From Escherichia coli (GTDB taxonomy: Bacteria > Pseudomonadota > Gammaproteobacteria > Enterobacterales > Enterobacteriaceae), in the NCBI RefSeq assembly GCF_001677475.2, contig NZ_CP015229.1: a stretch of 64,000 nt of DNA. One strand, given 5' to 3'. Made by a program: the position numbers and the translations under genes. The stretch's first letter is position 1, and each line of letters begins with the position of its first letter. Positions 34,496 to 35,170 of this stretch are shown in pieces. The notes below the pieces were generated by a model that saw only the letters and a list, made by a program, of their open reading frames with translations, was not told where the DNA came from and made no database searches.

Positions 34496-34624
34496 CGAGT
34501 AAAACTCATTAGGATTATCAGAATTCGGACAATGCATTGCAAAAATGACATACAAAGAGAGATGTGTGCAGGTACTTAGCCGCGAGGGGCATGGCGAAGC
34601 CATACAGAAAGCACCAGCATTCAG

Positions 34625-34668
34625 AACTCCTGTGAAAGCGGCATAGTGCCGCCTGCTCAGGAGTTTTA
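34625..34668 (+). terminator. Nested hairpin plus T-run downstream of the phosphatase gene
   Basis: aactcctg tgaaa gcggcatagtgccgc ctgct caggagtt ttt. Confidence 0.45.
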
Positions 34669-35170
34669 CTATGACCCGTAATCGTGCTTAACGTTACCAT
34701 CCTATGATGCGATTAAAAAAACTCACCGTCGCGCTGATGATTGACGTCAATGCTATCGGATGATACCGGGGTGTTCCGGAAGGAATTCCTTGTTTCCCGA
34801 ACTGTTACCCACAAAATTATAACGACGAGCAAGTAAAGACCGGTTGGTGGCAGCATTGAACGGTCTGTGATGGATGTTAAATTTCACCTTAAATCCTGGT
34901 GCTGTTAGGATGCTGACGTTTTTCGGGTACACCATTCAGATTATGCAAATAAATATCTCTGAATATAATATATTCATAGCACCCATAATTCATCCTGGGC
35001 GATAACTAAACCATTTTTGAGTAATAAATGAAACAACTGCAACGCTCTTATTATTTCTGGAAAACGTCTCGCAAAAACAAAACAACATGCAAAAATCCGC
35101 TTTCGTTAATTAATTTTCCGGCGTAATTTTCGCACATACATTAATGAGTAATATATGTAAGGTATTGGTA

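Follow-up and report, generated by a model that had tools for sequence, protein, structure and literature searches.

Integration and plasticity hotspots between core genes occur in the pan-genome of Escherichia coli, and CpxQ and SroC are small RNAs derived from 3′ UTRs that share the terminator of their mRNA. We compared with these and related systems a non-coding stretch of an E. coli chromosome (contig NZ_CP015229.1), which lies at positions 34496-35143 of the window, that is, of the 64,000 nucleotides of DNA that were analysed, and which we call the tail. A preliminary description made from the letters of the DNA had taken it for the AT-rich end of an inserted phosphatase island, with a nested hairpin and no genes for mobility. 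Our analysis leads to a different reading: the tail is very probably a composite scar of cargo modules that were joined, cut back and left to decay in the hypervariable slot that separates the core genes fabY and fdhE. It consists, from left to right, of a 31-nt flank of the phosphatase gene, a 26-nt stub of nadS, the hairpin and 17 codons of a 70-aa gene, followed by the junction of a ~392-bp deletion, the frameshifted last third of a 92-aa gene and the intact upstream region of yiiE, the proximal ~110 bp of which are duplicated upstream of yiiF.

Judged by the RefSeq annotation of K-12 and of the genomes that match best, the gene order in the window is yihX-yihY-dtd-fabY(yiiD) ... yiiE-yiiF ... 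fdhE-fdoIHG, and the flanks are ~98.5% identical to E. coli and ~94% to E. whittamii at the DNA level. The FabY protein is 100% identical to that of E. whittamii despite only ~94% DNA identity there, and E. whittamii was rejected as the origin of the window in favour of E. coli. The phosphatase ORF of 614 codons (ATG at 32681, end at 34495) holds the intact gene for a 604-aa protein (32681-34495, plus strand), which the tail follows directly. The ORF of yiiE opens at 35144, while the RefSeq-type start is at 35171, and the gene (35171-35389, plus strand) encodes a ribbon-helix-helix protein of the CopG family. The low GC content reported for the tail was confirmed (33-46%, compared to 52-57% in fabY and fdhE), and it is equally low across the whole fabY-fdhE interval and not in the tail alone. 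It also holds that no ORF of more than 60 codons lies between the phosphatase gene and yiiE, the maximum being three ORFs of exactly 60 aa, all on the minus strand. Further downstream, the window ORF at 35843-36223 encodes a PIN toxin; a 116-aa membrane protein of two other loci (L010 and L013) was considered as a relative of this ORF and proved unrelated on comparison.

The comparison with the presumed empty site in K-12, which the preliminary description had proposed, reverses the interpretation of the locus. The alignment of K-12 with the window ends at 32745 and resumes at 34793; the 2,047 bp in between (32746-34792) are absent from K-12. The junction in K-12, AACAACT|TTCCCG, interrupts the phosphatase gene at codon 22, and the microhomology there amounts to 1 bp. 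K-12 thus retains the 385-bp region 5′ of the phosphatase ORF (the promoter region) together with the first ~21 codons, and in K-12 C3026 PGAP annotates a truncated pseudogene that ends at this junction. A target-site duplication, looked for at the junctions as the boundaries of an island, was not found. Moreover, a 74%-identical homologue of the phosphatase gene occupies the same position downstream of fabY in two metagenomic contigs of another Escherichia lineage, where other genes follow it. Because a 5′ stub remains at the K-12 junction and a homologue sits at the same position elsewhere, we regard the phosphatase gene as resident and as lost in K-12; the idea of an inserted island that lacks an insertion mechanism is therefore not borne out, K-12 being a deletion derivative and the window the undeleted state. 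The same comparison divides the tail, which is not one unit. Its left 297 bp are a strain-variable scar, while the right 351 bp (34793-35143), from the right breakpoint of the K-12-type deletion at 34793 to yiiE, are all present in K-12 and belong to yiiE.

How variable is the slot? In many E. coli strains fabY is followed by an alpha/beta-hydrolase gene on the minus strand (ABH), a gene for a RelE-like protein of 103 aa, and nadS, before yiiE is reached. In these ABH-type strains the match to the window breaks off exactly with the fabY stop codon; it begins again at 34562, which corresponds to 26 nt before the end of nadS. In a further, two-module type the ABH-RelE-NadS genes lie behind the phosphatase locus. 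In the example that we inspected (L004) the 104-bp segment 34562-34665 occurs twice and flanks ABH-RelE-NadS; its first copy ends exactly at the end of the hairpin and is joined to the ABH stop on an AGTT microhomology. BLAST coverage counts over 5426 complete E. coli genomes, which are not a phylogenetic reconstruction, place the K-12-type junction in 1997 genomes and the phosphatase locus in 1061, the latter including 732 with the window-type locus and 330 of the two-module type; ~2360 genomes, the remainder of the 5416 that had a match, have neither the phosphatase locus nor the K-12 junction, and the sampled rows among them carry ABH with the toxin-antitoxin pair. A survey of 80 Enterobacteriaceae species gave fabY-ABH(-)-[RelE-like+NadS or YiiF-like]-fdhE as the common layout and limited the phosphatase gene to Escherichia. 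The slot holds a HigBA pair and an ABH stub in E. whittamii, and a repetitive stretch with other genes in Escherichia sp. L013.

Breakpoints in the slot often fall at gene ends. As far as can be read from the junctions, its content varies by deletion and by illegitimate recombination at 1-5 bp of microhomology, and not by insertion of mobile elements; that strains differ in this manner accounts for the lack of mobility genes in the tail. Two routes could lead to the window allele. In one, ABH-RelE-nadS′ would have been replaced directly by the phosphatase cassette, and the two-module type would have arisen later by a homology-anchored illegitimate join. In the other, a strain with both modules would have given rise to the window type when its two 104-bp repeats underwent homologous recombination.

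The preliminary description had suggested that the tail could hide decayed gene remnants, and pieces of three genes were indeed recovered from it. At the left end, directly after the stop codon (34493-34495), 34496-34526 (plus strand) is the true 3′ flank of the phosphatase gene, since the alignment with the 74%-identical homologue locus (ENA contigs L010/L011) ends at 34526 and this is the only part of the tail common to both. It is followed at 34529-34553 (plus strand) by 25 nt that resemble the yiiF-upstream stretch 35572-35595 (22/25 in a local alignment with one gap). The alignment score of 33 was reached by none of 500 shuffles (mean 18.6, maximum 28), and this piece is possibly, though uncertainly, a scrap of the leader of a ribbon-helix-helix gene.

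The nadS gene encodes the HTH antitoxin of the RelE-like/NadS pair. Its 3′ stub at 34562-34587 (plus strand) comprises the last ~26 nt, is diverged, carries a 1-bp indel and has lost the stop codon. Collinear homology with strains that have intact nadS begins at 34562, corresponding to position 4001 onward in L005, where the nadS CDS lies at 3736-4026. The O145 allele (L002) retains the nadS-type GGCATGGTTATGCC here. Beyond the hairpin, 34671-34722 (plus strand) is the 5′ remnant of the 70-aa gene, ~17 codons with an in-frame TAA at codon 7 (34689-34691); tblastn aligned MTRNRA*RYHPMMRLKK with MTRNRAERRHHMARLKK (E 1e-5). The intact gene is found at 4111-4320 of L006. Its product is Cys-rich and belongs to the phrog_4499 family, and ~50%-identical homologues exist in T5-like phages.

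At 34722/34723 lies a deletion junction with a short GCCGT-type microhomology, where ~392 bp are missing that are present in L004 and L006; they cover the remainder of the 70-aa gene and ~58 codons at the start of the 92-aa gene. The O157 and O145 alleles share this deletion, and the missing ~390-bp segment is whole in 1270 of the 5426 complete genomes by the same coverage count. The 3′ remnant of the 92-aa gene (residues ~59-92) follows at 34727-34829 on the plus strand, with an in-frame stop and a frameshift, and tblastn accordingly recovered it in two frames, as RRADD*RQCYRM... (E 3e-5) and PEGIPCFPNCYPQNY (E 3e-6). Its DNA is homologous to 6165-6454 of L004. B2-type strains and Escherichia sp. 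L013 carry both the 70-aa and the 92-aa gene after the hairpin.

These remnants have the two marks of pseudogenes. They are similar to intact syntenic genes (L004, L006 and L013), and they bear disabling lesions, which are the TAA, the ~392-bp deletion and the stop with frameshift in the window and independent lesions elsewhere. In the 70-aa remnant the lesions differ by allele, being the TAA in the window and in ETEC1738, a strain with almost the same sequence over ~34496-34900, and a 1-bp deletion in O157 and O145, as is expected of free decay. The 104-bp repeat at 34562-34665 behaves differently along its length. Over its first 41 nt, the nadS stub, identity with real nadS is ~75%, compared to ~98% identity over the 63 nt that follow; uniform neutral decay is therefore inadequate, and gene conversion or selection on the hairpin part is needed. 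The O145 allele is a mosaic between the two types of the repeat and, taken together with the 75%/98% split, this points to an exchange between repeat copies.

The nested hairpin occupies 34625-34665 on the plus strand (arms 34625-34643 and 34647-34665) and reads AACTCCTG-TGAAA-GCGGCA-TAG-TGCCGC-CTGCT-CAGGAGTT, so that an outer stem of AACTCCTG and CAGGAGTT is separated by a 5x5 internal loop from the inner stem GCGGCA/TGCCGC with the loop TAG. The GC-rich fold seen in the preliminary description is strong, with a ΔG of -25.2 kcal/mol (z = -4.5; 0 of 200 shuffles were equally stable), and sliding-window folding of both strands makes it the sole outlier in the tail (z -3.9 to -5.8, the latter in a 70-nt window). 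A small 5-bp hairpin, ATGGC-GAA-GCCAT (34591-34603, plus strand), just past the former nadS stop, is part of the minimum free energy structure and is marginal by itself (window z -2.3). Most of that earlier account thus stands, and its weak points are the T-run and the inverted repeats. What follows the hairpin is only TTTT and then AC, and two more T's lie inside the stem, where the AA at its 5′ base is their partner. Of the several short inverted repeats there remains one extra local AT-rich palindrome at 34957-34979, the others being long-range pairs of 70-90% complementarity that do not exceed expectation.

In intact modules the hairpin comes after the nadS stop and before the 70-aa gene begins; the same hairpin is found 3′ of nadS in L005, L006 and the second copy in L004. 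An assignment to nadS as its conserved terminator was considered and rejected; other genera have unrelated hairpins after nadS, while in Escherichia sp. L013, which keeps the hairpin region at 84%, the hairpin precedes the 70-aa gene without any nadS. For these reasons we assign the hairpin to the 70-aa gene, as part of its leader; the 3′ region of the phosphatase gene has inherited it from there. Natural variants break stem pairs without compensation, as do T to A in O145, G to A in B2 strains and C to A in L013. Among the E. coli alleles and L013, which amount to few independent sequences, there are no compensatory double-sided changes; one stem change, in L005, turns G-C into G-U, and the other variants break pairs or alter the loop size.

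What would the hairpin do in the window strain? It is likely a weak intrinsic terminator of the phosphatase gene, for which it would be the only candidate transcription stop. Like Rho-independent terminators, it is a stable GC-rich stem-loop 3′ of a gene with a 5′ A-tract and a 3′ U-tract, and in the two-module strain, where the phosphatase and hydrolase genes converge on it, it is placed like a bidirectional terminator. It differs from them in its 5x5 internal loop, in having 4 U where about 5 or more in 8 nt would directly follow the stem, and in a 3′ arm that, in intact modules, also provides the ribosome-binding site of the gene behind it. The distance of 130 nt from the phosphatase stop codon also counts against this role, and a consensus terminator scan of 34300-35400 returned no terminator-like site and left the hairpin, with its 4 T, uncalled. 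The features of the 3′ arm suggest, as a tentative alternative that we consider possible but doubtful, a vestige of translational control that sequestered the AGGAG of the 70-aa gene while that gene was intact, and that is now functionless and no terminator. The AGGAG (34659-34663) lies within the 3′ arm, 7 nt ahead of the ATG at 34671, the hairpin accompanies the 70-aa gene in L013 where nadS is absent, and uncompensated stem mutations occur in alleles in which the 70-aa gene is already broken. Yet stem pairs vary without compensation also where this gene is intact (L006 and L013), and such control is compatible with a residual terminator role and not opposed to it. The hairpin might also be the 3′ end of a small regulatory RNA, either with a gene of its own or derived from the 3′ UTR of the phosphatase mRNA (elsewhere of the nadS mRNA), in likeness to CpxQ and SroC, which have a conserved terminal stem-loop at the end of the 3′ UTR. 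The stable stem-loop followed by U's would agree with this, and the ~63 nt that include it are the best-conserved part of the repeat (~98% compared to ~75% for the nadS stub). This conservation is, however, equally explained by a leader and ribosome-binding-site role for the 70-aa gene. Against a small RNA speak also the stem pairs broken in O145, B2 strains and L013, the loss of the hairpin by deletion in 37% of genomes and, in contrast to the known 3′-UTR-derived RNAs, the lack of a seed-like conserved single-stranded region and of an Rfam family; at E<=1, Rfam 15 returned for 30000-40000 only an irrelevant lncRNA (E 0.24) elsewhere in the window, and a consensus scan of 34300-35400 found no promoter-like site on the plus strand. 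The small RNA surmised in the preliminary description is thus unsupported, and we consider it very unlikely.

The remaining alternatives concern the tail as a whole. It might be the degenerate end of a mobile element, such as an IS, a MITE, an integrative island or an integron-like cassette site, by which the phosphatase gene was brought in, and the low GC of the whole slot, the direct repeat ending at the hairpin that flanks a gene module in the two-module genome, and the name ‘transposase’ that PGAP gives to the C-terminal half of the phosphatase gene could be read in this way. We consider it extremely unlikely. No island ORF matched a transposase in Pfam, NCBIfam or PHROG, which also give no support for the PGAP label, and the protein so labelled has a SopB-like phosphatase fold. 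The tail DNA had no match in phages, and its four plasmid matches were discarded as mislabelled chromosomes, all being records of 1-4.9 Mb. Profile and DNA searches therefore uphold the earlier statement that the tail contains no transposase or integrase fragment; the companion proposal, that a BLASTX hit to a transposase would change the picture, is misleading, since such a search of the island would return the PGAP-named half of the phosphatase gene. Of the parts of an integrase-type island (integrase, tRNA or tmRNA target, att repeats) none was found, with no integrase-like ORF and no tRNA in a scan of 28000-40000, and the three junctions examined have neither terminal inverted repeats nor target-site duplications. 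The only direct repeat, the 104 bp of the two-module type, is accounted for as the nadS 3′ end and the hairpin leader downstream of it. Nor is the hairpin a dispersed repeat with many copies per genome, such as REP/BIME, ERIC or MITE; with up to 3 mismatches allowed it occurs once in the 64 kb of the window, and it has a median of 1 place per E. coli genome, being single-copy except in the two-module type. With an integron attC site it shares the imperfect hairpin at a cassette boundary and the direct repeat on either side of a module in one type of strain, but the tail has no RYYYAAC/GTTRRRY core sites on direct reading of the sequence, no integrase, and a repeat that is the end of nadS. The same segment, 34562-34665, could instead be a preferred recombination site, at which modules are swapped or stacked at stem-loops at gene ends, with the phosphatase gene, the hydrolase-toxin-antitoxin module and the 70/92-aa pair as its cargo. 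If true, this would amount to a recombinase-independent or new mechanism of cassette exchange; in a milder form, the hairpin segment would be kept because it yields a 3′-UTR small RNA. We hold the recombination site to be most improbable. Hardly credible, finally, is a real small protein encoded by a short ORF of the tail (60 aa on the minus strand or 32-43 aa on the plus strand). Such ORFs exist, but they overlap recognisable gene remnants that are read in a different frame or lie on the opposite strand, indels between alleles break them, and in the window-type genomes inspected the interval from the phosphatase gene to yiiE has no CDS in the PGAP annotation.

Upstream of yiiE, an AT-rich spacer (34830-35031, plus strand), conserved in K-12, contains the palindrome CTCTGAATATA-A-TATATTCATAG at 34957-34979. 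It is followed by the proximal promoter/operator region of yiiE (35032-35143, plus strand), which is paralogous to the region upstream of yiiF and has the core AACTGCAAC...TCTGGAAAACGYCTCGCAAAAA. The stretch 35032-35135 is 72% identical over 104 nt to 35470-35573 upstream of yiiF, also in K-12, and yiiE and yiiF are a tandem duplication that takes in the upstream regions. We infer that the right-hand third of the tail is the regulatory region of yiiE. This gene is associated with H-NS, and overproduction of SlyA in K-12 increases its expression 2.5-fold (PMC5797941); a SELEX peak of the sigma-S holoenzyme lies in the yiiD-yiiE spacer (PMC5493296); we found no other paper on the intergenic region.

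The preliminary description also appears right in naming the upstream gene a phosphatase. Sequence searches of the ORF against Pfam, NCBIfam, PHROGs and the PDB gave no family. A full HMMER scan alone brought out a family, in which the motif GCKSAKDRT, which follows the CX5R pattern, is invariant. The AlphaFold model is confident (pLDDT 85.8). Its best structural match is Salmonella SopB (E 6e-7); Legionella SidP and SidF, Sac1 and the myotubularins rank next. The 604-aa protein is therefore predicted to be a SopB/IpgD-like CX5R phosphatase. The gene is intact in the window and split in O157 and O145, and we found no paper on a SopB-like gene of E. coli.

The explanation of the tail is ordinary and of small weight for biology, but it corrects the reading of the locus. 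What was taken for a phosphatase “island” is a gene resident in Escherichia, which has been lost through a single deletion in K-12 and in 37% of complete genomes, and an intergenic region of E. coli can consist entirely of stubs of neighbouring genes and a reused stem-loop. The locus also holds a trap for annotation, as the label ‘transposase’ on a protein with a phosphatase fold misleads a check based on BLASTX. The unannotated gene for a SopB/IpgD-like phosphatase is a more interesting object than the tail itself.

Compared with the plasticity hotspots of E. coli, the fabY-fdhE slot is alike in being flanked by core genes, in its varied cargo, low GC and toxin-antitoxin genes, and in the remnants of neighbours at its junctions. 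It differs in that it has no integrase, tRNA or prophage, and in that all junctions examined are microhomology joins. With respect to microhomology-mediated deletion and duplication, the mechanism is here deduced from the junction sequences alone. Homology-facilitated illegitimate recombination is likewise matched by the 1-5 bp shared at the junctions (T; GCCGT; AGTT), by the lack of duplications and mobile-element ends, and by the fact that every rearrangement has one of its sides in the conserved flanks.

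Intact partners of two of the gene remnants in the scar at 34496-35143 are found in E. coli L006 and in Escherichia sp. MOD1-EC7003 (L013). The gene for a 70-aa Cys-rich protein lies at 4111-4320 in L006 and at 10721-10933 in L013, and that for a 92-aa protein at 4385-4663 and 10993-11271, respectively. The 70-aa protein corresponds to phrog_4499, and hypothetical proteins encoded by T5-like phages share about 50% identity with it. The 92-aa protein has no family. The ribosome-binding site of the 70-aa gene sits within the nested hairpin (34625-34665). PGAP left this gene unannotated in L006, and in L004, the two-module genome, it annotated a frameshifted 73-aa version (A7/A8 run).

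At the fabY end of the slot, the fabY stop codon is the exact end of homology between window-type and hydrolase-module strains. Immediately 3' of it, the window carries a clean terminator-like hairpin at 32266-32310, GAGAGGGGC-GGTGT-AGCCTCTCTC followed by TTTTTT; at this position, hydrolase-module strains have a different, perfect 15-bp hairpin. Downstream of fabY in L013, tandem repeats covering roughly 1.2 kb (8001-9266) give rise to spurious long minus-strand ORFs of repeating peptide pattern; the same slot is thus probably occupied there by a repeat array, REP/BIME-like or of another kind. The E. whittamii slot (L012) contains a minus-strand toxin-antitoxin pair, consisting of a HigB toxin and an HTH antitoxin, and an apparent 5' stub of the alpha/beta-hydrolase gene (MALEKGIAEF...), at 7998-8760 and 8855-9085, and represents a further independent reshaping of the region downstream of fabY.

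At and beyond the right-hand end of the scar, yiiE and yiiF form a tandem duplication (35032-35389 versus 35470-35849, period about 440-455 bp), whose repeated unit takes in about 100 bp of upstream sequence with the common core TCTGGAAAACGYCTCGCAAAAA. The region upstream of yiiF also matches, at 89%, 27 nt that precede the RelE-like/nadS operon in other strains, so that a single promoter/operator may serve different cargo. The ribbon-helix-helix gene yiiF (35553-35849) is directly followed on the plus strand by a 126-aa PIN-domain ORF (35843-36223), whose start the yiiF stop overlaps; the two constitute a VapBC-like toxin-antitoxin pair. Because about 35859-36196 is absent from K-12, the yiiF of that strain looks like an orphan antitoxin with its toxin deleted.

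The intact phosphatase gene (32681-34495, plus strand, 604 aa) occupies the E. coli core-gene slot fabY-yiiE, and a literature search found no paper on a SopB/IpgD-like gene there. Its homologues in the E. coli RefSeq genomes L001, L002 (O145), L004, L007 and L009 show the gene broken into two ORFs (~297 + 304 aa) in several strains, O157:H7 EDL933 and O145:H28 among them. The name 'transposase' that PGAP gives to the C-terminal half finds no support in any profile search and is likely a propagated misannotation. The intact protein has no sequence match in Pfam, NCBIfam, PHROG or PDB. Its CX5R motif (GCKSAKDRT) is invariant across the small family recovered by a full HMMER scan, and the best structural match of its confident AF2 model is Salmonella SopB, followed by Legionella SidP/SidF and Sac1. 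From the motif and this SopB-like fold, the protein is predicted to be a SopB/IpgD-like phosphoinositide phosphatase.
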